The notes: generated from the sequence alone by a model not told the origin. A stretch of 64,000 nt of DNA from a bacterium (GCA_030647205.1 JAUSJO010000002.1:11261-75260), one strand, 5' to 3'. Counted from the stretch's first letter, positions 12,995 to 34,753 are shown. Numbers and translations: made by a program.

Positions 12995-13480
12995 CTATTT
13001 TGCATATATTCTTGCTTCAGATACCTTGAACTGCTTGCCATCCCTAACCCAGTGGACCACTGCTATAGAAGATTTTTCTTCGGTTTTGCCTGCCTTGGAA
13101 GTATAGGTCTTTACGGTCACTTCCATCGTATAAGAACTTTTTTCCGGTGTAAACTTAGTAATATCCCCGGCACTTTGTTTGAAAGAATAGGAATTTTTCT
13201 TTAAGTTTTTTGATCTTTTGCTTTGGATGTCCTCGCTTTGGACTAGTTGTTTGTAGTAAGAGTCTGTCACAAACCCCCTCAGCTTTTTATAATATTCATC
13301 GGGGTACGTATTGTAGTCGTATGTGCCCCAAGCAACAACAAAATCTTTGGTAAGGGGGGTCAGCTCTTTTTTTACTGAGGCATTTTTCCAACTAGTTATA
13401 ATCCTCGGGCCAAGAACAACCCCAAGAAGCACAAGGAAAAGGACAATAGAGAATATAATCAATCTTTTTAAGTTAAACAT
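12995..13480 (-). CDS. bitopic membrane protein, hypothetical (distal gene of the T4SS-like locus)
   Basis: N-terminal TM (LIIFSIVLFLVLLGVVLG). No recognisable domain. Confidence 0.45.
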   Translation of the reverse strand: MFNLKRLIIFSIVLFLVLLGVVLGPRIITSWKNASVKKELTPLTKDFVVAWGTYDYNTYPDEYYKKLRGFVTDSYYKQLVQSEDIQSKRSKNLKKNSYSFKQSAGDITKFTPEKSSYTMEVTVKTYTSKAGKTEEKSSIAVVHWVRDGKQFKVSEARIYAK

Positions 13481-13501
13481 TTTTTCTCCTAGATTTAGAT
13501 A

Positions 13502-14158
13502 TTAACACCGTAACCCCTCGTATCTTGACATAACTTCGTTTGCGTAATCTACAGTCTCGCCGCATCCGCATGTATAACAACACCCAGAACCCCCATTATA
13601 GCTGGCAGCAGCGTTAGTCATGTCGCTTGCCGCCCCCAGGCTGGCTAAATAGTTTGCCGCAGAAAAGGCCGCATCCCAGGGATTCGTTCGGTCGAGGACC
13701 CCATCGCCGTTACCGTCAACAGCGATTCCCGGCCAGGTCCCTGGCGTTATCTGAAATGGTCCATCTTCACCGCACCATTCGAAGCTACCATCTCGAGCAG
13801 TACATTCTTGCAGTTGGATTGATGCTAGAAAAGCCGGATCAAGCCCATATTGCTGAGCGGCCGCTAGAATAGCATCCTGCATCTCTTGCGGTATTTCGGG
13901 GGCATTTATGCAGCCGTCACCAGGAGTGGGTCCAGTTGGGCAGATTTGACTGCCATCAGGGAGAGTAATCAGATTGCCGCCACCACCACACCCGGGCCCC
14001 TTACACCCGCCCCAGACGGGGTCGTTGGGGGTTGCTCCGTTAAGATCGCTCCATTCTTCGGCTAAGCCTGTATTAAGAGGGATAAAAACAAAAGCTAAAA
14101 AAAGAGCAAGAGTGGTGGTTTTCAATGTAAGTGTCTTGTTAAATTTCTTTAAAAACAT
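13502..14158 (-). CDS. secreted lytic transglycosylase-like (SLT domain) protein
   Basis: Signal peptide. ...QLQECTARDGS...GPFQITPGTW... resembles the SLT catalytic Glu/GLMQ region. Cys-rich tail. Confidence 0.5.
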   Translation of the reverse strand: MFLKKFNKTLTLKTTTLALFLAFVFIPLNTGLAEEWSDLNGATPNDPVWGGCKGPGCGGGGNLITLPDGSQICPTGPTPGDGCINAPEIPQEMQDAILAAAQQYGLDPAFLASIQLQECTARDGSFEWCGEDGPFQITPGTWPGIAVDGNGDGVLDRTNPWDAAFSAANYLASLGAASDMTNAAASYNGGSGCCYTCGCGETVDYANEVMSRYEGLRC

Positions 14159-14167
14159 AGTTAAGAC

Positions 14168-14869
14168 TTAATATTTTATCGGCTTTAATATATCTTCTGA
14201 GGCAGAGATGCCTTTTGCGCTGTCTACTATTTCACTTGGGGCTCCTTGGCTTTTTAAGACATCAATGACTGATTTTTTCGCCTGAATATCTGGCAATATC
14301 TCTTTCCACTTACCGTTTTCTTTTTTCAAAAATCGTTTTTGCCCAAAAATATAACCACCAGGAAGGGTTATACTTACTGATGCCCAGTCGCCGACGATTT
14401 TTTGATTTGTAACGATTGCTTTCGACTCATCGTTTATTCCTAAAATTTTTCTTATGTCAGACAGATCTTTTTCGGAGCTTTTTTTGTAGCTTTCGATCGA
14501 TGCATTAACTTTATCAATGCTTTTTTGGATTAGTTCAAGAGAATTTTCGTATTTTTTCTTTGACACTTTCTTGGAGACTTCATCGAAGTCTTTGTCGAGA
14601 GTGTTTTTGTCATAACCGGTAATAGAAGCCTTCAAAAGGAGAGCATTTTTCACCAGCCCGATGGATTTTTTGATGTTTTCGTCGGCATCTTTGTCGTTTG
14701 ACTCTTTTTTAAAATCAGAGTCTTTAGCTAGCTGGTTCTCGGTTGCTATTCGCTTATAGTTTCTAGAATAGTTCATTGCCGATCCTCCCAATGAAAAGAT
14801 TAACATGAAAATGACAAAGAGTATTGCTAGCAAGATAACTATTATTACTAAAATCTTTTTGTTTATCAT
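14168..14869 (-). CDS. bitopic membrane protein, hypothetical (VirB8-like position)
   Basis: Single N-terminal TM plus ~200-aa extracytoplasmic Lys/Asp-rich domain. Confidence 0.4.
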   Translation of the reverse strand: MINKKILVIIVILLAILFVIFMLIFSLGGSAMNYSRNYKRIATENQLAKDSDFKKESNDKDADENIKKSIGLVKNALLLKASITGYDKNTLDKDFDEVSKKVSKKKYENSLELIQKSIDKVNASIESYKKSSEKDLSDIRKILGINDESKAIVTNQKIVGDWASVSITLPGGYIFGQKRFLKKENGKWKEILPDIQAKKSVIDVLKSQGAPSEIVDSAKGISASEDILKPIKY

Positions 14870-14889
14870 AATTTTCTAATCCTAACCTG

Positions 14890-15603
14890 TTATTTAGCGG
14901 GTCTAAATACTCTGTCAGGCGGGCACTCGCCGACATCAAAGAATGTACTGTAGTGAACATCCGGGTAGTTGCCACCCTCTTGTATTAGATTAAATCCCCC
15001 TAAAGATAATGCTGAGTGGGCCCCGTTAACATAACCGCAGAAGGGGTCGCTCCAGTAAAGAATATCACCCAACTTAATAGATCCATCTTTTACTTCTATG
15101 GCAGTACTTGGGCCAGTATTCTTGGGCAGATTTTTTATCCCCGCCCAGTAGTATGACCAAGTAACAAGCCCCCAGCAGTCATAGTTAGCCGCTCCCTCTG
15201 GCGGTGGCCACTGGTCATAGGGGATAGCAGGAGCATACAGAAGATAGGGTTTGCCAAGTTGACTCTTTGCATAACAAACAGCTTTTTCCGGTATGGTTGG
15301 TTGCTTATCGCATTCGGTAGAAGGGGGCGGTTCCTGGGGAGGGGTCGGTGTGTCGCAAACATTGCACTGATCGTTGCCATTACAATATTTGCAATATTCA
15401 GCGACGGCTGCATCATCATTTGGATCGGGACAATAGCAAGTATCGCAGCGCTTTGATTTCTCGAGTGAACATGCAGCATATGCGTTTCCCGGTGTTATAA
15501 ATGATGAGATAAAAACAAAGACAAGGAAAAAAGTTAAAATAATTACTGAAGAAAAGAATTCCCTCATATCGTTGTCTAAATTAAGTTTCTTGAATTTGCT
15601 CAT
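14890..15603 (-). CDS. secreted NlpC/P60-family cysteine peptidase-like protein
   Basis: N-terminal TM/signal. Cys-rich linker. AKSQLGKPYLLY...YDCWGLVTWSYYWAG...LGDILYW...GAHSALSLGG (Cys-His-polar NlpC/P60 order). Confidence 0.55.
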   Translation of the reverse strand: MSKFKKLNLDNDMREFFSSVIILTFFLVFVFISSFITPGNAYAACSLEKSKRCDTCYCPDPNDDAAVAEYCKYCNGNDQCNVCDTPTPPQEPPPSTECDKQPTIPEKAVCYAKSQLGKPYLLYAPAIPYDQWPPPEGAANYDCWGLVTWSYYWAGIKNLPKNTGPSTAIEVKDGSIKLGDILYWSDPFCGYVNGAHSALSLGGFNLIQEGGNYPDVHYSTFFDVGECPPDRVFRPAK

Positions 15604-15688
15604 TTGTTTAGTCTTGGTTTAATATCCCTCTCAGATATAATAGCATATGTATTTTTAATAATAAATTCGGTATAGGTAGGCGGCCCTT

Positions 15689-16294
15689 TTATCTATATTG
15701 CCATATGATAGTCAAATTCTTTTCCGGATGGGGGACTCCGTTTGCGTCAAACCACTCAAGAACCCGCCTTTTGGCTTCCTCGGGATTTTCCTTGGAAACA
15801 TAAACAAAGAATTTATCATCATATGTCGGCTTGTTTATGTAGTAATATTTGGAGTCATCCTTGAAGGGCAGCTTATAGTAGAAGGGATATTTGTTCCTTA
15901 CAGACTCTAGTTTTGCTTGCCAGCTTGGGTCTGGTCTTCCACCGCCAAAGTTTGACTCTAGCGCCTTTTGTGATGGCCGATGCGGGCTCCTCTTTAAAGT
16001 ATATGAGAGCTTGATATTTTTGTCGGATGAACTCACTTTAAAATCGGCTTCTTGGTCTTGGTAGCCGTCTTTTGAGAGTTTTATTTTATAGTTTCCGGGC
16101 TTGATCTTAATCTCAGAAGGGGTTTTGCCTTCCTCGGACCCAACCTTAAAAGATGCTTCGTTCGGGATTGTGCTGATTGATACCGTTAATTTTTTGTTTT
16201 TGGGTATTAAAATAAGAGCGCCCACTAGAAAGGCCAACAAGATCACCGAAAGTAGGGCCACTCCTATGATTGTCTTTTTATTATTATTCACCAT
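15689..16294 (-). CDS. membrane-anchored PEGA-domain protein
   Basis: N-terminal TM, then ...GKTPSEIKIKPGNYKIKLSKDGYQDQEADFKV (PEGA-like beta-sandwich motif). Confidence 0.45.
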   Translation of the reverse strand: MVNNNKKTIIGVALLSVILLAFLVGALILIPKNKKLTVSISTIPNEASFKVGSEEGKTPSEIKIKPGNYKIKLSKDGYQDQEADFKVSSSDKNIKLSYTLKRSPHRPSQKALESNFGGGRPDPSWQAKLESVRNKYPFYYKLPFKDDSKYYYINKPTYDDKFFVYVSKENPEEAKRRVLEWFDANGVPHPEKNLTIIWQYR

Positions 16295-16305
16295 ATATTA
16301 AAACC

Positions 16306-18003
16306 TCATTTATAAAAAGAAATATTTGTTCCACCCATCATTCCCTCGAACTCACCTTGTGACACAATATAGACATCCCCACAACACCCCGGATCATAAA
16401 CGTAATAATTTGAACCGTCAAACCCCGCAACCGCCACAAAGTGTCCGCCAGAGTAAGTACCGCAAATATTTCCACTGACACCAACAACCATCGGTTCATG
16501 AGTTGAGGTTAAGAAGTCTCTTACGGCTTGTGCTCCCGGCTGTTGTTGATAGGAGAGGCCGCACGTGCTTGCTGCGGTATCCCAGACCGCACCTTCGTTT
16601 CCGCTAGTGCCCACGGCAGCGTTTAAGCTTCCCGGATCAATACTACAGCCATACCAGGCGGCAACTATTGCAGCTGAAGTTAAGCCACACCCACAATCTT
16701 GCATGTTGCATCCCCACCAAGTTGGATCATTCCACCAGGGTGCACCACCGCACCAGTTGCCTTGTTTCCAATTGTTAAGAACAGGAATGTTGTTTGGGTC
16801 TCGCTGGCCAGGGGTGCCGATGCCTCCCATACCCCCACCACCGGTACCCCCACCCCCGCCTCCACCGCCTTTTCCACTTTTCATGCCGATGGCTTCGCAG
16901 TTTTGCATCAGATAATTATAGAAAGAAAGAGCCCCGGTATTTTTCCAGTTGGCGGTTCCGGTGATTGCCATACTGGGAACCAGTGAATTTTTAGATATCC
17001 ATGGATCTTTTAGGACCTCGCTTAGCTGGTCATTAGTTTCACATTTATAGCAACCCAGGAGATTTTGCAGATTTTCACCTGTGTATTTCCCGTCGGTAAG
17101 ATACATGCATTCATAGTGCCTTAAGATAACGGCAACATTTAGAAAATCCTGAGGATCACTGTATGATTTTTTCACGCTAATGCCCTGGTCAGGCTTGCCG
17201 TCAGTACCATACCAGATATCTCCTGTAATCGGGTCGCGTCGGTAGTTTGCTTTTTGGATTTCCCAACCTAGTTGGATGAGAGCCTGCTCGTTAGTCAAGC
17301 CACGCTCATCAGCTGCCCCCTGATTCCAAACCTTGAAATCTACAGCTGCGATGACTTGCCAAGGGGTTTCTGTTTCTTTCTCGGCTTTCCTAAGAGCATC
17401 GTAATAGCAGGGATCAAGTGTTGGGCTCTTTGCTTTGTTCGCAAAGCATGAGAGGTCGCCGGTAATGGAGTTGCAATAGCCCGTGGTCATTGTCTCTTGC
17501 TGGGATCCTTGTATGAGGGCTATTATCAAAAAGCCAATAAATATAAAACCGATTATAAGAAGCACGGTGGAGCCACCGACCCAGCCACCCACCAACCATA
17601 TGATACGTTTCTTTATTTGTTGCTTTAAGAAGTTCTCAGCCGTGCCTTTTGGATCTTGGGCGGCTCCTTTAAGTTGCCTCCCCTTGTTTCTAAGTGCATT
17701 TGCTCTGTCCTTGGTAGCGCTAGACCCCTTATCCCCTGCAGCTGCACCGGTCTTTTCTCCGGCGCCCTTATCTCCTTTTCCGCTGCCTTTTTTGTCCGAG
17801 CCGTCACCCTTTTTATCAGTGTTGCTACCTGTATTTTCTCCCGAAGAGCTCCCAGTGTCTGTTCCCTTTGATCCTTTACCATAGTCTTCTAGACTCTTGC
17901 CTGATCGGTGACTGTCGTCATAGCTTCCCAAAGAGGAGCCGCCGCCCTCTCCCTGTTCCATTTCTTCCGGTTCTATTTCTTCATTTTCTTCTTCCGGATC
18001 CAT
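16306..18003 (-). CDS. PrgK/VirB1-like multidomain cell-wall hydrolase (acidic disordered N-tail, TM, transglycosylase-like middle, Gly run, C-terminal papain-like C39/CHAP-type peptidase)
   Basis: Translationally coupled to the VirB4 stop. ~135-aa low-complexity cytoplasmic tail, one TM. GGGGGGGTGGGGMGG linker. C-terminal QDCGCGLTSAAIVAAWYG ... GHFVAV ... DP is a C39-like Cys/His/Asp arrangement. Confidence 0.5.
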   Translation of the reverse strand: MDPEEENEEIEPEEMEQGEGGGSSLGSYDDSHRSGKSLEDYGKGSKGTDTGSSSGENTGSNTDKKGDGSDKKGSGKGDKGAGEKTGAAAGDKGSSATKDRANALRNKGRQLKGAAQDPKGTAENFLKQQIKKRIIWLVGGWVGGSTVLLIIGFIFIGFLIIALIQGSQQETMTTGYCNSITGDLSCFANKAKSPTLDPCYYDALRKAEKETETPWQVIAAVDFKVWNQGAADERGLTNEQALIQLGWEIQKANYRRDPITGDIWYGTDGKPDQGISVKKSYSDPQDFLNVAVILRHYECMYLTDGKYTGENLQNLLGCYKCETNDQLSEVLKDPWISKNSLVPSMAITGTANWKNTGALSFYNYLMQNCEAIGMKSGKGGGGGGGGTGGGGMGGIGTPGQRDPNNIPVLNNWKQGNWCGGAPWWNDPTWWGCNMQDCGCGLTSAAIVAAWYGCSIDPGSLNAAVGTSGNEGAVWDTAASTCGLSYQQQPGAQAVRDFLTSTHEPMVVGVSGNICGTYSGGHFVAVAGFDGSNYYVYDPGCCGDVYIVSQGEFEGMMGGTNISFYK

Positions 18004-19821
18004 CTAGGCCTCCTCATTTTCCGCTTTTTGTTCAGCCATTCTTTTTAGCTGTTCAGGGTTGGTTGTCACTAGGGAATCTTCTTTCATAGAGCAGATTATT
18101 TGGACGATAGCATGATTCATGCCAGCAATAAATATTCCTTCACCCGTGGAGCACTGAAGCAGGAAGTTTTTCTCGGGGGCAGTCAGGTCAAACACTTCTT
18201 GCATCAAATCAACTTGGGATGGATGTTGTTTTAAGAGTAGGGCCAGTGCCGCATTTGAAATCAAAGGTTTCCCGTATTCGCTTTTTAAGAAGTCGCCAAT
18301 ATCTTGTCCTATAGTGGTTAGGCCGAGGTAATATTTTCTGCCTCTTTTGGCTATAGAATATAAGAACTGTGCCGAATCTTCGTATTTCATCAAAACCCAG
18401 GCTTCATCCACAACCAGAATTCTCTTTTTCCTCTCACTTTTTACTTTGTTCCAAATAAAGTTAAGTACGCTATACATGGCAATGGGACGCAAGTCCTCTT
18501 CCAGATCTCTTATGCAGAAGCAGACAAAACGATTGGCAAGAGAAATGTTTGAGTAGTCATTGAATAGTCCTGAAAAGGTTCCCTCAGTAAACTTCTGAAG
18601 CCTGAGGGCCATGCTTTCTCCGCCGGGGATACTTTCAAGGACATGTTGAAGGTCAGACATTAGTGGTGGCGCCAAGCGGTGAGTTTTCGGGTCTTCTGTA
18701 ATTCCTTTTACTGCGTATGTTTCGGCTAAGGCCTTGTCCAAAACATTGCTCTCTTCATCCGAAAGTTTCCCCATCATTGTCCTTAGAAGGCCGGTAAGAG
18801 CGATAACATTACTTCTGAGGGAGTCCCTTTGTTCGGTATAGTCTGTAAGGTTTTGCGGAAGGTCAAAAGGATTGATAACGTCTTTAGAGTTTAAGTGGAT
18901 ATTTGCATAAGTTCCGCCAACTGCCTCACAAAGAGACTGAAATTCTTTTTCCGGGTCGATCACTATAATGTCTGCGTCAAACATCAGTTGCCGTAAAAGC
19001 TCAAGCTTTGTGGCATACGATTTACCACCACCGGATACCCCCAGTACGACCGAGTTATAGTTTTGGAGCTTAAATCGGTCAAAGATTATTAAACTGTTGT
19101 TAACTTTGTTAGCGCCGTATAAGATGCCTTCATTGTTGGTAAGTGTTGAGGATACAAACGGGAAGGATGCGGACACAGCCTCCGTATCCATATTTCTGGA
19201 GACGGTGAGCTCGTCTTTGCCCATTGGCAGGGTAGAGTTTAGCCCTTGTTCCATTTGTAGGTTGGCATGTTTTGTGAATACCAGTTGCGTTCCGAACATG
19301 TTCTCCACTATCTTGGTGCACTCGTTTAGCTTATCAAGAGACTCTTCATAGAGAGTGATGTACATGCCTTGCTTAAACATCTTTGACTGTCCGGTGACGA
19401 GGTTATCGCGAAGATTTTCTATATCGGAGTATGTTGCTTCAAGAAATGGATTTCTCGTTAGGCCTTTTTCGGCCTCCATAACCATTGATGACTCTATCTG
19501 GGTTGACTTGGCTCGTAGCTTTTTCGCAACTTCTTCTGTGTTTTGAGGGTATATAAAGATAGACAGATCAAGCATTATGTCTATATTTACAACAGGTGAA
19601 AGCCAGCTAGAGTCTAGAAATCTGGGATATTCATAGACAAAAAGGGTTCTTGTAAAAGTATCCCCGATTTTAAGATGGTCAAAAGCTAGCTCAAAGCTGG
19701 ATGGCGCTATCATGTCGCGAATAGAGGACATACCCTCCTGAAAGGACTGCTGCCTCTGCATTTCCTGAAGCTCCGCCGCTGTTGGTGGCTTCTGTTTTCC
19801 TAAAAGTTTGTCTAAAAACAT
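18004..19821 (-). CDS. virB4: VirB4/TrbE/CagE-family type IV secretion ATPase
   Basis: Walker A VLGVSGGGKSYAT, Walker B ILVVDEAW. ~600 aa conjugative ATPase similarity. Confidence 0.85.
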   Translation of the reverse strand: MFLDKLLGKQKPPTAAELQEMQRQQSFQEGMSSIRDMIAPSSFELAFDHLKIGDTFTRTLFVYEYPRFLDSSWLSPVVNIDIMLDLSIFIYPQNTEEVAKKLRAKSTQIESSMVMEAEKGLTRNPFLEATYSDIENLRDNLVTGQSKMFKQGMYITLYEESLDKLNECTKIVENMFGTQLVFTKHANLQMEQGLNSTLPMGKDELTVSRNMDTEAVSASFPFVSSTLTNNEGILYGANKVNNSLIIFDRFKLQNYNSVVLGVSGGGKSYATKLELLRQLMFDADIIVIDPEKEFQSLCEAVGGTYANIHLNSKDVINPFDLPQNLTDYTEQRDSLRSNVIALTGLLRTMMGKLSDEESNVLDKALAETYAVKGITEDPKTHRLAPPLMSDLQHVLESIPGGESMALRLQKFTEGTFSGLFNDYSNISLANRFVCFCIRDLEEDLRPIAMYSVLNFIWNKVKSERKKRILVVDEAWVLMKYEDSAQFLYSIAKRGRKYYLGLTTIGQDIGDFLKSEYGKPLISNAALALLLKQHPSQVDLMQEVFDLTAPEKNFLLQCSTGEGIFIAGMNHAIVQIICSMKEDSLVTTNPEQLKRMAEQKAENEEA

Positions 19822-19852
19822 ATTTTAAATCCTTAAGCTTACAGCTCTTATT

Positions 19853-20593
19853 TTATAATCCACTATCAATATTGTCTTCCGCAGACTGTCTGGTAGTAAT
19901 GTAGTTTGCTCCCAGTGTGTCCAGTCCCTTTATGTGTTCATGTCCAGCTGTCTCCGGGTTGTAGCAAGCATAGAAGAGCTCAACCAAAGCTTCTGTAGGG
20001 AGCGGTGTTAGCGCCAGTCCGATATCGGAAAAAAGGCCGGAAACTATTTGCGATCGTCTTTGGAGCTGTTGCCTGTTTTGAAGGTAGTTTTCATTCTCTC
20101 CTTCTTGAGTCTGCCCCTGTTTCTTTATACCAAACATAGCCATGATGCCCTTAGAGCTCTCGGCGACGACATTTGGATAGTATGGTATGATAACGAAAAA
20201 TCGCTTATCCATAACATTTACATTTGAGAGAATGTCTCTCAAGAAGAGAATGTACTCACTGGTTTGCTCTCTAAGTAGTGGTATGGGCTGATTTTGTGCG
20301 GATGTTTCTAGGAGCCCCAGGTAGTTTGTCAGGTCAAGTTTTCTCGACTGAACTAAGAACTGAACCGGAAACTCTAGGGAGTTTAGAGCGCTCTGGTATG
20401 CGGAAATAATAGACATTTTTTCCTCTTCGGCGCGAAGCTCCATATTGATACTGGAAACCATCATCACGGCTCTCATAGAACTATCCTTGAAAAGCAAAAG
20501 ATCGTCCTTTATCTGGTCAATTTCTAAAAACTTTTGAGTGCTCTCAAACGTTTGATGAATATTTTGCTGTGGATCTTTTTTGCTAAAAAACAT
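19853..20593 (-). CDS. hypothetical protein, possibly a separately encoded VirB4 N-terminal-like domain
   Basis: 246 aa, no TM. Lies 31 nt upstream of the virB4 ATPase ORF. Weak resemblance to the CagE/TrbE N-terminal region. Confidence 0.3.
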   Translation of the reverse strand: MFFSKKDPQQNIHQTFESTQKFLEIDQIKDDLLLFKDSSMRAVMMVSSINMELRAEEEKMSIISAYQSALNSLEFPVQFLVQSRKLDLTNYLGLLETSAQNQPIPLLREQTSEYILFLRDILSNVNVMDKRFFVIIPYYPNVVAESSKGIMAMFGIKKQGQTQEGENENYLQNRQQLQRRSQIVSGLFSDIGLALTPLPTEALVELFYACYNPETAGHEHIKGLDTLGANYITTRQSAEDNIDSGL

Positions 20594-20649
20594 GTTTTGT
20601 ATAAATTTAACTAGTAGTGCTTAAATTTTCTTTCATTCTCAGTCCGGGT

Positions 20650-21321
20650 TCAAGCCCCTTGTTTAGGAGGTTCTTTTCCTATCGCCTCATCTACTTTGTA
20701 GTATCCTTTTGTATCTGGTTGCTCATAGGTAAACTTTTTTCCCGGATCTACCGAGGCAAGGTCAGATATTGACGGCTCGGGATTGGTTTTAACTTTCCCC
20801 TCGGTTTCTTCTAGGGCTTTTTCCACAGCTACATTGCTTTTATCCATGAATGTTTCCGGTTCATCGGTTGGTGGCTTCTTTTGCATGGAACTGTATGCTC
20901 CACCGGTATCTACCATGAGTGAGAGCTCTTCAATCTGTTTTTCTGCGTCTAGCAGAGATGCTTTCTGGGGAGGTCCCTCTACAACCACTACCGTCTCTTC
21001 TTCCTTGGGCTTCAGGCTGACCGGCTCGACATACTTTTTCCAAACCCTCTTCCTCGGCTTAAAGAGATAGGTGACAAAATGACCCGAATATGTATAGATT
21101 GGTTTGCCATTGTAGGGGACGAAGCCGGCAACTAGTGCGGGGGAACCAATGATGCTTCCGACAATGATGGAGCCCATCAAGGAAATCCCGGCCCCTGTAA
21201 AAATAACCACGAAAACAGCCATAATAACGAAGAAAGCGAAAACAAAGCCGAAGCTTTTTAAGGTAAATGGGCCAACGACTTTATCTTCAACATTGATTTC
21301 CTGTGGTATTTTAAATTGCAT
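20650..21321 (-). CDS. VirB3/PrgI-like small membrane protein (two TM hairpin plus charged tail)
   Basis: N-terminal two hydrophobic helices (FGFVFAFFVIMAVFVVIF / LMGSIIVGSIIGSPALVAGF). Position between VirB6-like and VirB4. Confidence 0.35.
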   Translation of the reverse strand: MQFKIPQEINVEDKVVGPFTLKSFGFVFAFFVIMAVFVVIFTGAGISLMGSIIVGSIIGSPALVAGFVPYNGKPIYTYSGHFVTYLFKPRKRVWKKYVEPVSLKPKEEETVVVVEGPPQKASLLDAEKQIEELSLMVDTGGAYSSMQKKPPTDEPETFMDKSNVAVEKALEETEGKVKTNPEPSISDLASVDPGKKFTYEQPDTKGYYKVDEAIGKEPPKQGA

Positions 21322-21359
21322 ATTTCTTTATGTTCATTATTCTCAGTTTGCATCTCTTA

Positions 21360-23162
21360 TTATGTCAATAGTGTTGCTTTCCTGTGAAGCTCTGCTGCCT
21401 CAGCGCGAGTAGTACCGCTATGTCCATTTCTATTGTTTGCCATATCCAGCATCTGCTCTCTTAGGTCTGAGGCTTGCTGTGCCTTTTTGGAGTCAGCCTT
21501 AAGACTTGTAAGCATTGAGTCTGTGATACTTGTGCCCCCAATGAGCTGATGCTTTAAAAGTCCAGGGTTGCTCCCTCCGTCACCTTTTATATCAGGCGTA
21601 ATCATATCTCCAACTGAGTGGCCAATTGTGGAAAAATCTTTACTGCGCAGCTGGTGTAGATTTGACTTCTTCAGGGCCTCGTCGTAGTTACCAGTTTGCA
21701 TGATGTGAGCTTTGACACTGTGATCAGTGGCTGCCTCGTAGTCCAGGGCGCCCTCTTTCACAAGGTGGTCGATAGCGGTTCCCTTGTTGCCTCCTCGTTT
21801 TTCCCAATCTTTCAGGCTTTTCTGTACATCGTCGCCGAGTTTGGAGCGGTCCAGGGTTCCTCGCGCATACTTACGCCTGTCGCTATTTGACATCCCGAGA
21901 TTACCAAACTTGTCTGCCAGGTCTCTGTTTAGGTTGATTTGATCCTGCGCGCTCTCACCAATTATTCTACCGCCAACTCCGGGTATTCGCCCAAAACTTT
22001 TTCTCATTTGTCCACCAAGCTTTTCCTGTTTTCTGGCAGCAATATTGCTACTTCTTTGTTTCGCCCAACCCTGCCAAGCTTTTGGATTTACAGTTGCCGG
22101 CAAGAGATTCACGCCGGCTTTTCCTGTTTTCTTTGCCATACTGCTAATGTGTGAGCCTACTGCGCCCAAGAAACCAAGCGGCAGGAAGACTGCCATGGGG
22201 ATGGATACTGCTCCGAGTAGGAATGCATCAAGTGCCTGGATTACCTCTTCGCCCTTTCCTTCGTCGTCATGAATGGCTTGAGCAAATGGAGTTTTGGCCT
22301 CTTCACTTGTAAAAATTGAGTTGGATGCCGCCATAAAACCAAGACCAATTGATAAGACAAAAAAGCATATGGGTAAGAAGATGGTCCACTTGATAAACAT
22401 GTCCCAAAACTTTTTAAATAATGGCTGAGTGGCCGGAAGGGCAATCAGCCCAAATGCAAGCGGGGAGATAACGATAAGCATTCCTAGTATAAAGCCTCTG
22501 ACGAAGAGTATTGCTGCCAAAAGCAAGAGCATCAAGAATGTCAAGACTGCGATAAGGAAAATGCCCACAGACACGGGCAGGCTAGGGACATCTCCTTTAG
22601 ACATTGCTAAGCCGATATTGTTCATGTAAATATCAAATTGATCTAAATTTTTTTTCGCTAGTGTTTTTGTTAGGGCTACACTTAAGTTAATAATGGAGCT
22701 ACAGATGAACTTACTGAAATAGACGAAAAATGCGGTCATGACAAGTTTTGGTATGAGTCTTTGAAAACCCCACTCTTCTATCTTAAATTTCATCATATTC
22801 ATAAAGGCGATAGCAATGACGGCAAGACCAAAGAGATCTAGTGTGGCTGCCTTGGTGTTTTGCCACTCGGTGGTGATTGCGGGGTTTGACACCAGATTCA
22901 TAGATGCATTAGCCCCTGATACCACAAGGTGGTAGCCCAAGCTTATAAGGTCGTAACCCGTTGCATAAAAAAACTCAGATATTCTCTCAAGTATCCACTT
23001 TATCCAGTTGGCTGGGTCTATAAAATCGAGTGATTGCGCATATGTGGGATGAGGTGTTAAGGTAAGGACCAGAGAAAAAATAAAAAGCGGGACCAAAAAC
23101 ATTAAAACATGTTTCGGTTTCGCTTCTTTAGAACTGAATATCTTTGATAAAAACACCCTCAT
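21360..23162 (-). CDS. VirB6/TrbL-like polytopic membrane protein with long hydrophilic C-terminal extension
   Basis: Signal/TM N-terminus, 5-6 TMs in the middle, ~250-aa charged C-terminus. Gene order pilin-VirB6-VirB3-VirB4. Confidence 0.45.
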   Translation of the reverse strand: MRVFLSKIFSSKEAKPKHVLMFLVPLFIFSLVLTLTPHPTYAQSLDFIDPANWIKWILERISEFFYATGYDLISLGYHLVVSGANASMNLVSNPAITTEWQNTKAATLDLFGLAVIAIAFMNMMKFKIEEWGFQRLIPKLVMTAFFVYFSKFICSSIINLSVALTKTLAKKNLDQFDIYMNNIGLAMSKGDVPSLPVSVGIFLIAVLTFLMLLLLAAILFVRGFILGMLIVISPLAFGLIALPATQPLFKKFWDMFIKWTIFLPICFFVLSIGLGFMAASNSIFTSEEAKTPFAQAIHDDEGKGEEVIQALDAFLLGAVSIPMAVFLPLGFLGAVGSHISSMAKKTGKAGVNLLPATVNPKAWQGWAKQRSSNIAARKQEKLGGQMRKSFGRIPGVGGRIIGESAQDQINLNRDLADKFGNLGMSNSDRRKYARGTLDRSKLGDDVQKSLKDWEKRGGNKGTAIDHLVKEGALDYEAATDHSVKAHIMQTGNYDEALKKSNLHQLRSKDFSTIGHSVGDMITPDIKGDGGSNPGLLKHQLIGGTSITDSMLTSLKADSKKAQQASDLREQMLDMANNRNGHSGTTRAEAAELHRKATLLT

Positions 23163-23217
23163 ACTGAAATTATAGCATGAGGGTGTTTCTAAACAATAGT
23201 TTTATTCTAAGATTAGT

Positions 23218-23562
23218 CTATTTGTTGAGAACGCCTAGAACAACATTGATCAGGACTAAGGACAGAACGATTATCGCCAAGCCAACAAGTGCGAAAATGA
23301 TAGTTTTCTTTGCCCCTTCCGTCTGAGTCGGGTTGCCGGCAGAAACGATATATCTGATACCGCCGATAACAAGGAAAACAACCGCTACAAGTCCTGCGAT
23401 ACCGAGCAGCCAGTTTCCAATGGCCTTAATAGTGTCTGATAAGCAAGTTTCGCTTGAACAGTCCTTGATCGTGACGTCTACGTTTTGTACATCGGCGAAA
23501 GCACCGGCTGGCAGAAGAACATGAGCTATAAAGACCGACGTTGTTAAAATTTTCTTTTTCAT
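23218..23562 (-). CDS. VirB2/TrbC-like pilin (paralog 1, minimal form)
   Basis: Signal peptide, short Cys-containing segment, then two hydrophobic helices split by a short loop: LVAVVFLVIGGIRYIVSAGNPTQTEGAKKTIIFALVGLAIIVL. Confidence 0.5.
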   Translation of the reverse strand: MKKKILTTSVFIAHVLLPAGAFADVQNVDVTIKDCSSETCLSDTIKAIGNWLLGIAGLVAVVFLVIGGIRYIVSAGNPTQTEGAKKTIIFALVGLAIIVLSLVLINVVLGVLNK

Positions 23563-23690
23563 TTTTTTTGCTCCTTTTTTAAGTAGGATTTTATTTTTAT
23601 AAATTTATTCTAATGCTTTTTTATTTTGTTTGCAAGCTATTTAATATATTACCACATTGGACACTAAATTTAACAAACTTGTCCACTTAT

Positions 23691-24233
23691 TTATTTAAAA
23701 AGACCGGCTAAAAGCGAAATTACTAAGTATGACGATATGATTATTATAAGGCCTATGATGGAGCCGACAATAGTTTTCTTTGCCAGCCCGGTTGCAGTCG
23801 GGTTCCCTGCAGATACTATATACATAACCCCGCCGATAAGAACCATAATCAAAAGTATGATGCCGGCAAACCCCATGACTTTATTTAAGGCGCTTTTTAT
23901 AACCTTTCCAAGCTCATCTTTGCCCGGATCATCCTTTCCTTCCTTGAAAACACTGTCGTTGCTACGGTCACCAGTGGTGCCCGTCGTCCCCCCGGTTGTG
24001 CTGGTACTATTGCTTGCTGCGCTGCCCGGGGCCGTTGATGTGCCTGTGCTTGTGTTTTCTACAGAACCTTGCGCTTGGGCGTCGCCTTGATATCTTTGTT
24101 CGATCGCGTGAGTGTGCGGATTCAAGCCAGTAGCTGCCTGGAAAAAACTAATTGCAAGAAAAACAAATGCAGTTAGGCAGGGGATAAGCAAAAATTCTTT
24201 TTGGAAATGTCTAAATTTTCTCATTTTTTGCAT
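23691..24233 (-). CDS. VirB2-like pilin paralog 2 with Gly/Thr/Ser-rich N-terminal extension
   Basis: N-terminal TM, GTSTAPGSAASNSTSTTGGTTGTTG low-complexity region, C-terminal hairpin IGGVMYIVSAGNPTATGLAKKTIVGSIIGLIIII. Confidence 0.45.
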   Translation of the reverse strand: MQKMRKFRHFQKEFLLIPCLTAFVFLAISFFQAATGLNPHTHAIEQRYQGDAQAQGSVENTSTGTSTAPGSAASNSTSTTGGTTGTTGDRSNDSVFKEGKDDPGKDELGKVIKSALNKVMGFAGIILLIMVLIGGVMYIVSAGNPTATGLAKKTIVGSIIGLIIIISSYLVISLLAGLFK

Positions 24234-24238
24234 TTAAT

Positions 24239-25384
24239 TTAATAAGGAGAAGCTCCTAAGAGGGCTAGAAATATATTCATGCCAAGTATCAGAGTAATGC
24301 CGATAAGCGCGTACTTAATATGTTCTTTAGCAGTTGATATTTGTCCAGGGTTACCGGCGGCTGTGGCATAAAGTACCCCGCCGAATATAATCTTTAGCAT
24401 CGCAAGGCCGCCAAAGACGATGCTAGCGATACTCATAACGTCTCTAGCAAAAGTCTTAACATCCCCGTCTCCGCAGAATGACTTGTCTTTATTTACACAT
24501 TTCATATTATTGACCAGACCTGATAAGGTGTCGTTGCCAGGAAGCCAGCTTCCTAGCTCTAGCTTATTCATAAACTGTTGTATTTCTTTCTGATAAGAAT
24601 CATTTACATTATCGGCTGTTGCTCCACAGTTTTGCAGGTAGGTAGTAGCGTCTGCTATTTGTGTTGATTGTTTACATGCATTAAGGTCACATCCTTGATG
24701 GCGGGAACTACCTATTTCGCATAACCTGTTAATAGTTCCTCTGACATCAACTATTGGTACTCTACTGGTTTGGGTCCAAGCACCTATCCATTCGTCTGTT
24801 GCGCAAGGGCGGTCGCCATGGGCCGGGATATATGTTCTGCATGCGCCTTGTCCGTCATTGTGTATGCCTTCCTGTTGGCATTGCCCTTCGCTAATTGTTC
24901 CCGCACTCATGAAAGCAGCGTACCAGCAGTTGTCCAGACAGTTATCACACTGGCTTCTGTAGTTACTCTCTGCTGTTGTTACCCAAAACTGACTGTAGTA
25001 GTCTTCGAAAGCAAGACAGTAATCACCTCCGGCGCAATCTTCCGCACTTGTCTCCCCGCCTCCAAGGGAGTAACACCTAAAAACACATTCGTCATTCCAC
25101 TCTCCGGTCATACATTCTCCATTGGAAAACAAATCGGTACCCCCTACACCACTGTCGCCTTCCGGGCACGTTTTGGTCATGCCCAGTGTATTTTTTGCCC
25201 ACTCATCTATGCAAGCTCTATAGTCACTAGCGGAATTCCAAAACCTACTACAATCGTGTCCAGGAGTACTGGCATGGGCGATCAAAGAGTTTTGTGTGGG
25301 CCCACCGATAAAGGAGATAATATTAAAAAGAACAAATACCGCAACAAATATTGTTATTAAAGAAAGTAGCTTTCTAACCCTCAT
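24239..25384 (-). CDS. VirB2-like pilin paralog 3 fused to a ~300-aa Cys-rich extracellular domain
   Basis: Start taken at the internal ATG (MRVRKLLSLITIFVAVFV). More than 30 Cys in the ectodomain. C-terminal IFGGVLYATAAGNPGQISTAKEHIKYALIGITLILG hairpin. Confidence 0.45.
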   Translation of the reverse strand: MRVRKLLSLITIFVAVFVLFNIISFIGGPTQNSLIAHASTPGHDCSRFWNSASDYRACIDEWAKNTLGMTKTCPEGDSGVGGTDLFSNGECMTGEWNDECVFRCYSLGGGETSAEDCAGGDYCLAFEDYYSQFWVTTAESNYRSQCDNCLDNCWYAAFMSAGTISEGQCQQEGIHNDGQGACRTYIPAHGDRPCATDEWIGAWTQTSRVPIVDVRGTINRLCEIGSSRHQGCDLNACKQSTQIADATTYLQNCGATADNVNDSYQKEIQQFMNKLELGSWLPGNDTLSGLVNNMKCVNKDKSFCGDGDVKTFARDVMSIASIVFGGLAMLKIIFGGVLYATAAGNPGQISTAKEHIKYALIGITLILGMNIFLALLGASPY

Positions 25385-25470
25385 GCCTTTATTATAGTTA
25401 TGTTCTGGGAAGCGTGTAAAGAAGAAAATTATTTTTAGAGCCACTCTTGGGGTGCAAAGAGGTTCAAAAA

Positions 25471-25530
25471 GAAAAAGGCCCGCGGTAGTTTAGAAAACAA
25501 ATGTTTTCAAACTAAGCGGGCCTTTGGGGC
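25471..25530. terminator. bidirectional hairpin terminator
   Basis: AAAAAGGCCCGC...GCGGGCCTTT. GC stem flanked by A-run and T-run, between two minus-strand units. Confidence 0.5.
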
Positions 25531-25536: not shown

Positions 25537-25911
25537 CTAAGGGAGGGGGTGCCTGCGGAGGGCTTCTCTGCGAGCTTCATCGTCTCCGAAGTACTTGGGG
25601 TCGAGCGCTGCCTGGTTTTTCTCTGCTGCCTTCTTCTCATCATTGTCTTCCTCGTTAGAGTCAGAAGAGAACCGCGGTTTAATGAGATGAATCCAGGCCG
25701 GCTTGACTACAAGTCGCCAGATGGCATAGAAGACGCTGATGCGTACCAGGTTCCAGAAGACTGCTCCCGGCTGCGGTTTATAACATATGACGACGAGGAT
25801 CACGATGGGGATTATAACCGATGGTTTTAATCCCTTCTTGTACCAGCTGGCCCAGCCGGACCAGTCCGGTTTGCCTTTCTTGTTGCTCTTCGTATTGTCA
25901 GCCATCTCCAC
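25537..25911 (-). CDS. small membrane protein, hypothetical (GC-rich mini-island)
   Basis: One or two TM helices, basic N-terminus, acidic tail. ~50% GC. Confidence 0.4.
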   Translation of the reverse strand: MEMADNTKSNKKGKPDWSGWASWYKKGLKPSVIIPIVILVVICYKPQPGAVFWNLVRISVFYAIWRLVVKPAWIHLIKPRFSSDSNEEDNDEKKAAEKNQAALDPKYFGDDEARREALRRHPLP

Positions 25912-26050
25912 TCCTTGGATAGGTTTGAATGCTTAGGTGCTTCTAACCAAACTTTCTCTTTTTGATTAGAATATAACATTATACATCAAATATATTATTT
26001 GTCAATGGTTTTCTTTTGATGGCAAACTGGTTTGAGAAAACCAAGAAATG

Positions 26051-26078
26051 AAAAAGGCACCGATCGCTCGGTGCCTTT
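26051..26078. terminator. rho-independent terminator
   Basis: AAAAAGGCACCGA-TCGC-TCGGTGCCTTT, perfect 8-bp stem. Just downstream of the 26102 stop on the minus strand. Confidence 0.55.
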
Positions 26079-26101: not shown

Positions 26102-26536
26102 TTACTTTCTTTGGAAGCTTACCCCTCTTTGTGTATCATAGAGGGTGTTGCCAACAACCTCGAGCTTACAGATGGACTCTAGCTCTAGTGTTATAGTGTT
26201 TCCGTTCATCGACCACTCTCCGAAGTTGGGGTTCATGAGTTTCCATGACCAGCCACCTTGCTGGCTGTAGTGTAGCCTGGTACTTATTCGGCCATTCTCA
26301 AGAAGCTCTATGCAGGGATCTTCGGTTTTCTCTCCTGCCAGTTTTGCGTCTGTACAGTACTTCCCGGCCATTTCCGCATAGTAGGCCGGCGCTGCATTGC
26401 GCTCCATGTATGACGTGATCGCCAGGTAAGATACGGCTACGGTGATGACACTCCCCAGGGCAAATGCCAGGAAGATGAGCCACTTCTTACTTACCTTGTT
26501 TCCAAAAACTGATGTTTGTGATGCTGCCTGCGGCAT
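26102..26536 (-). CDS. membrane-anchored hypothetical protein (GC-rich mini-island)
   Basis: N-terminal TM KKWLIFLAFALGSVITVAVSYLAI. No known domain. Confidence 0.4.
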   Translation of the reverse strand: MPQAASQTSVFGNKVSKKWLIFLAFALGSVITVAVSYLAITSYMERNAAPAYYAEMAGKYCTDAKLAGEKTEDPCIELLENGRISTRLHYSQQGGWSWKLMNPNFGEWSMNGNTITLELESICKLEVVGNTLYDTQRGVSFQRK

Positions 26537-28320: not shown

Positions 28321-29937
28321 CTACTCTTTAATAACTTTCAGAACCTCAACAATGTTGACTATTCCTTCGATTGCCTTTAGGAAACCATCTTGCTCCATAG
28401 TCAGCATGCCGTCTTTTATGGCGATTTCCTTGAGTTCGTGTAAAGTATTGTTTTCTACAACTGCTTTTTGAAAAGCAGGCGAGACACTAAGGAACTCATA
28501 AATACCGAGACGGCCTTTGTATCCAATATTATTACACTCTTTGCATCCTATACCCTGGAAGAACTCAGGTGTTTTTTCCGGTTTGTGTTCGATAGGGAGA
28601 GAGTCAATGATCTTGTTTATCTCGACCATTTCGTGATCGTTTGGCTTGTATTCCTCGATACAATGCGGGCAAATTCTTCGTACCAGACGCTGAGCGATAA
28701 TGATATTTACAGCGTCAAGAAAGGATGAAGCGTCATTCACAAGACCGATAATTCTCGGAACAGCTGTGACAGCGTCATTTGCATGCAAAGTTGTTATGAG
28801 AAGATGACCGGTGATTGCTGCCTGAAGTGCAGTTTTTGCAGTTTCGGCGTCACGTATTTCACCAAGCATTATGATGTCCGGGTCTTCACGAAGGACGGCC
28901 TTTAGTCTATCAGCGAAACCTTCCCCTTCGTTAATCTGGGACTGAGTAGCGCCGGGAAGAGTGTACTCTATAGGATCTTCTAGGGTGATAAGCTTGATTT
29001 CCGGTGCATTTAATTTGTTTAAAATAGAATAAATACTGGTTGTTTTACCAGAACCGGTTGGACCGACGACGAGGATCATCCCGTGTGGGCGAATAAGTGC
29101 AGAGTCCAGTATTGGGCGCTGAATATCACGGACGCCTAGTTTGTCCATATCCAGTAGCTCTGCCTGAACGTTGAAAAGACGGATAACGATATCGTCGCCG
29201 TAAAGTGAAGGCATAACTTCTATTCTTACACTAAGCTCGTTGTCAGAAAACTTAACCTTGAAACGGCCGTTTTGCGGATAGTTTACGTTAAGTTTCAAGC
29301 CCGAACGCAACTCTACTTGCGATCGAACGAACTTGTATTGCTCGTGGCTCAAAATGGTTGCCAAATGCAGGACACCATCAAGTCGAAACCTCAGTTTCAC
29401 GTCATCGTTTGCCGGTTCAATATGAATGTCCGATGCGCCCATTGCGAAAGCCTCTATAATAATAAACTTTAGAAGCTCTTGTATAGGTGCAGTCTTAATC
29501 TTCTCTTGAAACTCATCAAAAGATATCTCGGAAATGTCCATCTCAGAAACATCTACCTCTCCCGGTGTTTCTGCCGGCGGAAGCTGGACAATGTCTCTTA
29601 AGAGTTCCTCGTTATCCTTGAAGCTTTCAGTAGATATAATAGCAACAGACGTCTTGGGATAGGTTTTTTTGTATTTCTCCTTAAATTCATTGATCTTTTC
29701 AGACTTAGGATTAGGAGAAACAATAACGAGAGTATCTTGATCCATTTTTAATGGGATTACAGAGCACTCAAAAAAGTCCTTGTTATTAAAATTTTCAAGA
29801 ATATCTTTTTCCAGGCGTGCAGCACGTAAGTCAAAATAAGGTATGCCGAGCCTTTCAGCCTCCTCTTGGATTTTTTCTTCAAGGGCATTCCTGTTGACAA
29901 GCTTTGCCTTGGCTACGACATCTAAAGTATCACTCAT
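28321..29937 (-). CDS. pilB: type IV pilus / type II secretion assembly ATPase
   Basis: GspE_N-like N-domain. Walker A VVGPTGSGKTTS. His and Asp boxes. Tetracysteine motif CPHC...CKEC. Start taken at the MSDTLD ATG. Confidence 0.85.
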   Translation of the reverse strand: MSDTLDVVAKAKLVNRNALEEKIQEEAERLGIPYFDLRAARLEKDILENFNNKDFFECSVIPLKMDQDTLVIVSPNPKSEKINEFKEKYKKTYPKTSVAIISTESFKDNEELLRDIVQLPPAETPGEVDVSEMDISEISFDEFQEKIKTAPIQELLKFIIIEAFAMGASDIHIEPANDDVKLRFRLDGVLHLATILSHEQYKFVRSQVELRSGLKLNVNYPQNGRFKVKFSDNELSVRIEVMPSLYGDDIVIRLFNVQAELLDMDKLGVRDIQRPILDSALIRPHGMILVVGPTGSGKTTSIYSILNKLNAPEIKLITLEDPIEYTLPGATQSQINEGEGFADRLKAVLREDPDIIMLGEIRDAETAKTALQAAITGHLLITTLHANDAVTAVPRIIGLVNDASSFLDAVNIIIAQRLVRRICPHCIEEYKPNDHEMVEINKIIDSLPIEHKPEKTPEFFQGIGCKECNNIGYKGRLGIYEFLSVSPAFQKAVVENNTLHELKEIAIKDGMLTMEQDGFLKAIEGIVNIVEVLKVIKE

Positions 29938-29961
29938 AGCTTGTATGATAGCATAATGTGA

Positions 29962-29990
29962 TTGAAAAAACACGAAATTTTAGCTATAAT
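29962..29990 (+). promoter_or_regulatory. sigma70-type promoter for the tandem tRNA-Ser genes
   Basis: TTGAAA-17 nt-TATAAT about 25 nt upstream of tRNA position 1. Confidence 0.5.
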
Positions 29991-30330: not shown

Positions 30331-30960
30331 ATGAAGACAAAGCTTACAAAAGTGAAAAAAGGAATGTTCCTACTTTGTGTATTTCTGCAAAGCTTGTTTA
30401 CTATCGGGGTTAGTACAGTGTATGCCCAAGGCGGTGATGTGCCGATACCAAATATTCCGCCGCCACCAAATGTGGAACTTTATAAGGTTCTTACTAATCT
30501 TGCGAATCTCATTCTTACGATCGCCGGGGCTCTGGTCGTAGTAATGGTAATAATAGGCGGAATCCGTTATATAATATCGGCAGGAAATCCGCAAATGGTC
30601 GAGGGAGCTAAGAAGACCATTATTTATGCACTTGTTGGTCTGGCGGTAATCATCCTATCAGCAGCAATACTTAATACAGTTAACTTTGTTCTAAATAAAA
30701 ATGGGGCCAGTGGTTCTACTACTGGTACTGGAACCGGCAATACTACCGGGACCGGCACACAGGCTCTCCCGGAAGACTCCTGTAGTACAGACTCGGACTG
30801 TGCATGCGGGATACACAAGATTGATAAGAATTGTTTCTTTGGCAACGAACAGTACGTTAACACCGATCCTGCACTTGCCTGTCCTGACTTTTGTTCAGGA
30901 GTAGGCGGGAACCTTACAGTTAAGTGTGTTAGCGATAAATGTGCTCAGGTTGCAAAATAA
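30331..30960 (+). CDS. VirB2-like pilin paralog 4 with Gly/Thr linker and C-terminal 8-Cys domain
   Basis: Signal peptide. IGGIRYIISAGNPQMVEGAKKTIIYALVGLAVIIL hairpin. GSTTGTGTGNTTGTGT linker. C-terminal Cys-rich knot (CSTDSDCACG...CPDFC...CVSDKC). Confidence 0.5.
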   Translation: MKTKLTKVKKGMFLLCVFLQSLFTIGVSTVYAQGGDVPIPNIPPPPNVELYKVLTNLANLILTIAGALVVVMVIIGGIRYIISAGNPQMVEGAKKTIIYALVGLAVIILSAAILNTVNFVLNKNGASGSTTGTGTGNTTGTGTQALPEDSCSTDSDCACGIHKIDKNCFFGNEQYVNTDPALACPDFCSGVGGNLTVKCVSDKCAQVAK

Positions 30961-34715: not shown

Positions 34716-34753
34716 AAAAGAAAAAAGCCCCAGTTCGGTTGAACTGGGGCTTT
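34716..34753. terminator. bidirectional terminator serving the convergent minus-strand operon
   Basis: A-run, GCCCCAGTTC-ggtt-GAACTGGGGC, then TTT. Overlaps the stop of the PurA-like gene. Confidence 0.6.

Follow-up and report, generated by a model that had tools for sequence, protein, structure and literature searches.

A chromosomal, origin-proximal type IV secretion operon of the Patescibacteria kind with a predicted VirB8-like last gene

The 64,000-nucleotide stretch of bacterial DNA analyzed here (GCA_030647205.1 JAUSJO010000002.1:11261-75260; hereafter, the window) carries, at positions 12995-25444, a 13-gene locus that is a genuine type IV secretion system (T4SS) operon. Wang et al. 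2023 and Quinonero-Coronel et al. 2025 have already described the T4SS of the Patescibacteria, a group of ultrasmall, host-dependent bacteria, and the locus is this T4SS; an initial annotation of the window, made from its sequence alone, had not recognized that, and comparison with the known loci of Patescibacteria (also termed the candidate phyla radiation, CPR) showed that the system is the same. In our assessment, the locus is very probably a chromosomal, vertically inherited T4SS typical of Patescibacteria, which derives from monoderm conjugation machinery of the MPF-FATA type and has become untied from the DNA-processing genes. Its gene content, its operon layout, its position beside the replication-origin genes, and its conservation across Patescibacteria lineages were observed directly. 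The only fresh detail relative to the described systems is the last gene, the product of which is predicted to have a VirB8-like fold.

Operon layout, conserved core, and genomic setting

The operon consists of 13 co-oriented open reading frames (ORFs) on the minus strand, with intergenic gaps of 0-128 nt in our ORF listing, and 11 of them found family matches in Pfam and NCBIfam profile scans (Table 1). The initial annotation had counted the same 13 genes and had named 12 of them. Its three VirB2-like pilins, its VirB6-like and VirB3-like membrane proteins, its VirB4 ATPase, and its PEGA, NlpC/P60, and SLT proteins were all recovered by profile matches, whereas the gene at 12995-13480 had been left undescribed.

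Table 1. Genes of the T4SS operon and elements at its 5' end, in order of transcription (positions in the window; aa, amino acids)
Feature	Position	Strand	Match or basis
Intrinsic-terminator-like hairpin + T run	25466..25525	-	-30.6 kcal/mol, z = -6.25, 0/200 shuffles fold as well
Promoter-like site TTTACA-18-TATAAT	25391..25420	-	11/12 consensus positions; consensus match only
Pilin 1, 401 aa	24239..25444	-	PF18895 T4SS_pilin at C-terminus, 34.6 bits (cut-off 26.6)
Pilin 2, 180 aa	23691..24233	-	PF18895 at C-terminus, 29.8 bits (cut-off 26.6)
Pilin 3, minimal VirB2-like, 114 aa	23218..23562	-	PF18895 at C-terminus, 51.5 bits (cut-off 26.6)
VirB6-like polytopic membrane protein, 600 aa	21360..23162	-	PF04610 TrbL/VirB6, 26.4 bits (cut-off 25.9)
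PrgI family (VirB3-like), 223 aa	20650..21321	-	PF12666, 34.2 bits
TrsD-like soluble protein, 246 aa	19853..20593	-	NCBIfam TrsD/TraD, 1.5e-4
VirB4 ATPase, 605 aa	18004..19821	-	NF045971 CD1110 family, 378 bits (cut-off 325)
Candidate membrane-anchored wall hydrolase, 565 aa	16306..18003	-	Peptidase_C39_2 at residues 435-538, 28.2 bits
Bitopic PEGA-domain protein, 201 aa	15689..16294	-	PF08308, 48.4 bits
Secreted Cys-rich NlpC/P60 peptidase, 237 aa	14890..15603	-	PF00877, 24.7 bits (cut-off 23)
Bitopic Lys-rich protein, 233 aa	14168..14869	-	One N-terminal hydrophobic helix
Secreted Cys/Gly-rich SLT lytic transglycosylase, 218 aa	13502..14158	-	PF01464, 32 bits; PF13406, 32.4 bits
VirB8-like bitopic protein, 161 aa	12995..13480	-	N-terminal membrane helix + NTF2-like domain (predicted fold)

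On one flank of the operon lie rnpA, yidC, jag/KhpB, dnaA, dnaN, recF, and a DciA-like gene, with dnaA, dnaN, and recF at a distance of 0.3-4 kb from the last gene of the operon; the rnpA-yidC-jag-dnaA-dnaN-recF flank is a classical replication-origin neighborhood. The other flank holds two small unconserved genes, Hsp20, ComFC, an orphan PilB, two tRNA-Ser genes, and a fourth VirB2-like pilin gene. With respect to transcription, comFC and pilB are located upstream of the operon's 5' end, and not downstream of the operon as had been annotated.

A VirB4 scan of species-representative genomes yielded nine related loci, all in Patescibacteria metagenome-assembled genomes (MAGs), with VirB4 identities of 47-79% (75-79% in unclassified bins, 56-57% in Howlettbacteria and Saccharibacteria, and ∼51% in Berkelbacteria and Nomurabacteria). 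According to tblastn and phmmer searches, the order pilins-VirB6-PrgI-TrsD-VirB4-hydrolases-DciA-recF-dnaN-dnaA-yidC recurs in four of these loci (L001, L002, L005, and L006) and partly in two others (L004 and L007), and PilB-ComFC-Hsp20 lie upstream of the T4SS in L001 and L003. The core that runs from the pilins to VirB4 is conserved across the related loci, and the tail of the operon is variable.

Among NCBIfam models, those scoring highest on VirB4 are the Firmicutes CD1110 family and the family from Mycoplasma integrative conjugative elements (ICEs; 270 bits), whereas Gram-negative VirB4 models score far lower. The Walker A (GVSGGGKS) and Walker B (ILVVDEAW) motifs are intact, and the only solved relative found by sequence in the PDB is the Thermoanaerobacter VirB4 (4ag5, 3e-39). 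The CD1110 match spans model positions 178-729 of 752, the N-terminal ∼180 positions being absent, and the TrsD-like protein encoded by the preceding gene also matches positions 87-193 of a full-length VirB4 model (VirB4_plasma, 7e-6). The separate N-domain-like ORF of the initial annotation is therefore correct, as VirB4 is without its N-terminal part and it is this part that the preceding ORF resembles; in each of the nine related loci, moreover, a TrsD-like gene immediately precedes virB4. The PrgI-family protein has two membrane helices followed by a ∼130-aa hydrophilic tail. The VirB6-like protein has at least six hydrophobic segments and a ∼270-aa hydrophilic C-terminal extension, and three of its four orthologues also match the TrbL profile. 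PDB searches with the family profiles of the TrsD-like and VirB6-like proteins returned nothing meaningful.

The three pilin genes, which stand in tandem and all exceed the Pfam cut-off, form a divergent PF18895 array near virB4, as in the T4SSs of the Patescibacteria clade. Pilin 1 comprises a signal peptide, a ∼300-aa Cys-rich domain (20 Cys), and a VirB2-like two-helix hairpin at residues ∼328-392, and residues 312-401 are its only part that aligns in relatives. Pilin 2 comprises a signal peptide, a Ser/Thr/Gly-rich linker, and a VirB2-like hairpin; in the domain-bearing and linker-bearing pilins alike, the hairpin is the only part conserved in relatives. Pilin 3, the best conserved of the three, is 50-56% identical to the VirB6-adjacent pilin in L001, L003, and L006, and is likely the major pilin. 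Identity between pilin domains amounts to 29-45% within the array and to 57% between the minimal pilin and the fourth gene. The latter (30331-30960, plus strand) lies outside the operon, past the two tRNA-Ser genes; it matches PF18895 at 46 bits as well as TrbC, and encodes the hairpin first, then a Thr/Gly linker, and then a Cys-rich C-terminal domain.

Our scan for mobility genes covered all non-nested ORFs of at least 200 aa in the window, which represents 64 kb of a ∼428-kb contig, together with ten smaller ORFs, and left out several of 100-135 aa. Among the scanned ORFs, there was no coupling protein, no relaxase, and no integrase, in agreement with the initial annotation, which had reported neither VirD4 nor a relaxase; nor did ∼3.4 kb added to the right of the window from short Logan contigs contain any T4SS or mobility genes. 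As an argument against conjugation, the absence of VirD4 from 64 kb says little, because the VirD4-like gene SEML1_0142 of Southlakia epibionticum lies ∼137 kb from the T4SS (PMC10633639) and most coupling-protein (T4CP) genes of Patescibacteria are far from virB4 (Quinonero-Coronel et al. 2025, PMC12102498).

The last gene, the wall hydrolases, and the ends of the operon

The last gene of the operon (12995-13480) matched no VirB8 sequence profile, and sequence searches of Pfam, NCBIfam, and the PDB gave no match for it either. When 1.84 billion representative proteins were searched exhaustively with HMMER, 15 relatives of 150-186 aa with 22-81% identity were found, and an AlphaFold2 model computed from the alignment of these relatives reached a predicted local distance difference test score (pLDDT) of 93.9 and a predicted template-modeling score (pTM) of 0.82. 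In the model, a four-stranded antiparallel sheet accompanies one long N-terminal helix and three short ones; this predicted fold is confidently VirB8-like, with the bitopic topology and the extracytoplasmic NTF2-like domain of the VirB8 type. The family profile also matches (i) the last gene before DciA in L001 (9e-16) and (ii) in the Saccharibacteria locus L005, the gene that follows SLT (1e-31). Because of its predicted fold and its gene context, we assign the protein as a VirB8-like component.

The gene that follows virB4 encodes a candidate wall hydrolase of 565 aa, which is composed of a disordered cytoplasmic tail (residues 1-140), a membrane helix (146-164), a mostly helical domain (∼170-390), a Gly run, and a papain-like Cys peptidase with conserved GCG, HFVAVAG, and DPG motifs in our alignments. 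It had been annotated as a PrgK-like multidomain hydrolase; the architecture agrees with this description, but the domain content does not demonstrably do so, the Pfam match being to Peptidase_C39_2, with none to SLT or CHAP. Peptidase_C39_2 and CHAP are both members of the papain-like clan of Pfam. Two word-index searches found three close relatives and one homologue at 39% identity; the AlphaFold2 model built from the alignment of these few sequences was too poor (pLDDT 51) for a fold search, and a PDB sequence search with the protein gave nothing meaningful. A C39-like peptidase is the first gene after virB4 in L001, L002, and L006 as well (C39_2 at 51-55 bits in L001 and L002), and weaker sequence or domain relatives of the PEGA protein are found 3' of virB4 in the same three loci. 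The Lys-rich protein (14168-14869), a coiled-coil protein, had no family match above threshold in Pfam, NCBIfam, or PHROGs, the last of which was of no use for any of the operon genes without a family.

The SLT transglycosylase may play a VirB1-like role, and its orthologue lies directly after virB4 in the Saccharibacteria locus L005. The glycan cleaver differs from locus to locus: a GH73 glucosaminidase in L001 and L006, SLT and CHAP in L005, and SLT and NlpC/P60 in the present operon. Hydrolases with the same presumed job have been swapped for non-orthologous ones between lineages. The hydrolase genes from other families 3' of virB4 are located at 14255-15526 in L001 and 10986-11654 in L006 (both GH73), and at 3884-5044 in L005 (CHAP). 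A 476-aa CHAP-domain protein (60 bits) is encoded in the window itself, at 1050-2480 (plus strand), distant from the T4SS operon; it is another wall hydrolase, which could have the same or a different purpose.

At the 5' end of the operon, the GTG start at 25444 is probably over-extended, and the true first start is probably the ATG at 25384, which opens the signal peptide and sits just past a promoter-like site and a strong terminator hairpin. Since the promoter-like site ends 6 nt ahead of this ATG, the transcript may be leaderless or very short-leadered. The hairpin divides the operon from an upstream gene for a small membrane protein of 124 aa (25537-25911, minus strand), which has a perfect TTGACA-16-TATAAT promoter match and terminator-like hairpins on both sides (elements at 25978-26005 and 26053-26078); the protein matches no family and is without orthologues in the related loci. 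This ORF and that at 26102-26536 were considered as extra operon members and rejected, as terminators intervene and neither is conserved in relatives.

The hydrolase genes had also been described as GC-shifted relative to the membrane components. The Gly-rich genes for the peptidase and SLT stand out by a high whole-gene GC content (0.486 and 0.514, respectively) and the Lys-rich bitopic genes by a low one (0.353 and 0.387), but the value for the NlpC/P60 gene is average (0.447), so that no shift specific to the hydrolases is seen. Third-position GC of the 13 operon genes (0.38-0.48) stays within the background, which is 0.442 (sd 0.077) over 50 other genes. The GC differences within the operon track the Gly-rich versus Lys-rich composition of the proteins, and we rejected the idea that a GC shift points to a foreign origin, because third-position GC equals the genome background.

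Elsewhere in the window, the orphan PilB/GspE-type ATPase (28321-29973, minus strand) has a T2SSE match of 349 bits and an MshEN domain, and no further genes for type IV pili occur in the window; pilB adjoins the T4SS in L001 and L003 also. A four-gene cluster at 46638-48999 (minus strand) encodes a ThiF-like E1 protein, a JAB-domain protein, and two family-less proteins (208 and 132 aa), and could be a ubiquitin-like conjugation or defense module, although it had no PADLOC match. A GC-richer block at 34752-39892 (minus strand; 0.47-0.51 versus 0.43) codes for a long adenylosuccinate-synthetase-like protein (492 aa), a pyruvate-kinase-barrel-like protein, a family-less 320-aa protein, a Ser/Thr kinase, and a uridine-kinase-like protein.

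Probable function and alternative readings

The machine most likely serves a host-dependent lifestyle, as judged by analogy with S. epibionticum, in which an 'apparent T4SS' (SEML1_0006-0019) is essential for growth on the host according to transposon sequencing (Tn-seq; Wang et al. 2023, PMC10633639); the Patescibacteria T4SS has been presented as the first whose carrier bacterium was shown to require it (PMC12857230). In the mechanism that we propose, PrgI/VirB3, VirB6, and the VirB8-like protein would form a membrane translocon, which would be powered by the split VirB4 (namely, the TrsD-like protein and the ATPase). The anchored papain-like peptidase, the NlpC/P60 peptidase, and the SLT transglycosylase would open the cell's own wall, and possibly that of the host. 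The three pilins would assemble into a VirB2-type pilus, with the minimal pilin (23218-23562) as the major subunit, and with the pilins that bear a Cys-rich domain or a Ser/Thr linker as minor, surface-exposed, host-contacting subunits. By extension from the S. epibionticum Tn-seq data, the machine would support an epibiotic lifestyle by delivering proteins to the host, or by taking macromolecules from it, and would not serve conjugation.

This interpretation retains the central description in the initial annotation, that of a compact, monoderm-style, nonconjugative T4SS with its own wall hydrolases, which is borne out by gene content, the site at the origin, synteny, and the lack of mobility genes, and with which the literature agrees (PMC10633639, PMC12102498, and PMC12857230); the uses that the annotation favored (uptake, effector delivery, or attachment) are in line with what has been written on the same system. 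Between effector export, import of host macromolecules, and adhesion, the sequence alone does not decide. We offer as a tentative and rather doubtful extension that the last-gene family is the 'missing' VirB8 of the T4SSs of Saccharimonadia-related Patescibacteria and that the operon makes a pilus-tipped conduit, in which Cys-rich pilins would recognize the host, interchangeable hydrolases would breach the host envelope, and host macromolecules would be imported.

Several points weigh against our interpretation of the locus as a vertically inherited Patescibacteria T4SS that serves life on a host. The VirB6 profile match is marginal (26.4 versus 25.9 bits), and the middle domain of the 565-aa protein (∼170-390) is without a family assignment, with an hhalign probability of 1% against the operon's own SLT domain. 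None of the nine related loci has an orthologue of the gene at 14168-14869 or of that at 14890-15603, and both therefore may be accessory. A T4CP or a relaxase may lie elsewhere on the ∼428-kb contig, and the placement of VirB4 in the Patescibacteria clade is suggested by best hits and synteny. Finally, even in the model organism, the substrate of the T4SS and the direction of transport are unknown (2024 perspective).

A dedicated machine for the import of DNA or other nucleic acids, comparable to Helicobacter pylori ComB or archaeal Ced and feeding a nucleotide-auxotrophic cell, would account for the lack of a coupling protein and a relaxase among the scanned ORFs and for the adjacent ComFC and PilB, an adjacency that is kept in L001 and L003. 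Nucleotide acquisition has, moreover, been named as a candidate role of the Patescibacteria T4SS in a 2024 perspective that calls its function completely unknown, and a 2026 preprint describes tubular structures at the parasite-host interface that are possibly T4SS pili. We nevertheless consider such a machine unlikely. The comFC and pilB genes, which had been taken to support DNA uptake, reflect conserved synteny and do not discriminate between functions; the comFC adjacency is poor evidence for uptake, because in S. epibionticum comFC is non-essential and the T4SS is essential, and because deletion of comEC abolishes competence without loss of viability. Further, the CedB model scores only 43.5 bits on the present VirB4 against a cut-off of 700, which indicates general VirB4 homology only, and no DNA-binding component was identified in the locus.

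A reading in which the locus is mainly an adhesion organelle, whose pilus and domain-bearing pilins attach the cell to its host while the hydrolases only permit assembly and no substrate is moved, strikes us as quite unlikely. It would suit the divergence of the pilin paralogues (29-57% pilin-domain identity), the large non-conserved Cys-rich domain of one pilin, and the C-terminal Cys-rich domain of the fourth pilin outside the operon. However, VirB6, VirB3, the VirB8-like protein, and VirB4 are all kept, the latter with intact ATPase motifs; Saccharibacteria already have type IV pili for adhesion and motility; and adhesion and transport are not mutually exclusive.

An ICE or a decayed remnant of one, located by chance beside the origin and with its DNA-processing genes outside the window or recently lost, would agree with a VirB4 that passes the NCBIfam cut-off of a conjugative-transposon family, with a gene order resembling monoderm conjugation operons, and with T4CP genes often being far from virB4, but it is highly improbable given that the same locus occupies the same chromosomal position in distant Patescibacteria (VirB4 at 47-79% identity), that the scanned ORFs include no integrase, relaxase, or T4CP, that third-position GC equals the genome background with housekeeping genes on both sides, and that monoderm conjugative systems are generally without VirB2 pilins.

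Comparison with known systems

The conjugative T4SSs of monoderm bacteria, namely pCF10 prg, pIP501 tra, and pGO1/pSK41 trs, share with the present locus VirB1-, VirB3-, VirB4-, VirB6-, and VirB8-like parts; TrsD precedes VirB4 in pGO1/pSK41, as it does here, and the candidate membrane-anchored multidomain wall hydrolase of the locus is PrgK/TraG-like in architecture. A PrgK/TraG-type hydrolase, however, combines an anchor with SLT and CHAP, whereas the 565-aa protein combines an anchor with a C39-like domain and no recognizable SLT. Unlike these systems, the present locus is chromosomal and origin-proximal, has VirB2-like pilins, which they are without, and is itself without a relaxase, a coupling protein, an oriT, and a PrgB-type surface adhesin. 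H. pylori ComB and archaeal Ced resemble the locus in having a T4SS core without a relaxase or an adjacent coupling protein, in a competent or nucleotide-needy organism, but ComB is of the diderm type and includes VirB7, VirB9, and VirB10.

The closest likeness is to the T4SSs described in Patescibacteria. Wang et al. 2023 reported that the S. epibionticum T4SS resembles Gram-positive conjugative systems, has an essential pilin array, and has no recognizable coupling or relaxase proteins (PMC10633639). Its genes run in the order recF, a hypothetical gene, PEGA, a lysozyme-like hydrolase, a large protein, VirB4, a gene at the TrsD position, and PrgI, followed by two VirB6-like genes around a non-essential NTF2-like gene, six pilins, Hsp20, ComFC (non-essential), and tRNA-Ser; the PEGA protein, SEML1_0005, is of class GD/ES/ES in the Tn-seq table (PMC10633639). 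Like the present locus, the S. epibionticum ML1 T4SS thus lies after dnaA-dnaN-recF, encodes PEGA, wall hydrolases, VirB4, a gene at the TrsD position, PrgI, VirB6, and a VirB2-like array, is followed by Hsp20, ComFC, and tRNA-Ser, and has no relaxase or coupling protein in the cluster; this likeness is read from published gene tables, and the VirB4 identity of ∼57% is to a Saccharibacteria MAG. The two loci differ in that S. epibionticum has (i) six pilins on the opposite strand, against three co-oriented pilins here and one outside the operon, (ii) two, much larger, VirB6-like genes, (iii) lysozyme-like and glucosaminidase hydrolases in place of SLT, NlpC/P60, and a C39-like peptidase, and (iv) an NTF2-like gene (SEML1_0012, non-essential) between the VirB6-like genes, against a VirB8-like gene that is last in the present operon.

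In a survey of 3,035 genomes, Quinonero-Coronel et al. 2025 assigned 2,425 VirB4 proteins to a Patescibacteria clade that is nested within MPF-FATA; near virB4 they found TrsD, PrgI, VirB6, and arrays of PF18895 pilins, while relaxases were few and proximity to dnaA/dnaN was frequent (PMC12102498). The present locus shares with that clade an MPF-FATA-affine VirB4, TrsD beside virB4, a PrgI-type VirB3, VirB6, a PF18895 array of low paralogue identity, a position near dnaA/dnaN, and the absence of a relaxase. In the survey, VirB8 homologues occurred in very few genomes, almost all of class ABY1 (PMC12102498), whereas the present operon encodes a predicted VirB8-like fold of a family found in two related loci. 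A 2025 review regards the Patescibacteria T4SS as a new branch of the T4SS superfamily and speculates that its pilus is a conduit for exchange or uptake.

To this picture, which is unchanged, the locus makes modest additions: (i) a predicted VirB8-like gene within the operon, in a lineage in which sequence surveys rarely found one; (ii) the distinction between a conserved core (from the pilins to VirB4, with the C39-like peptidase and PEGA in close relatives) and glycan- or peptide-cleaving hydrolases that are swapped between lineages; and (iii) pilins fused to large variable domains. The substrate being unknown, well-annotated examples of the Patescibacteria T4SS from outside Saccharibacteria are of comparative value.

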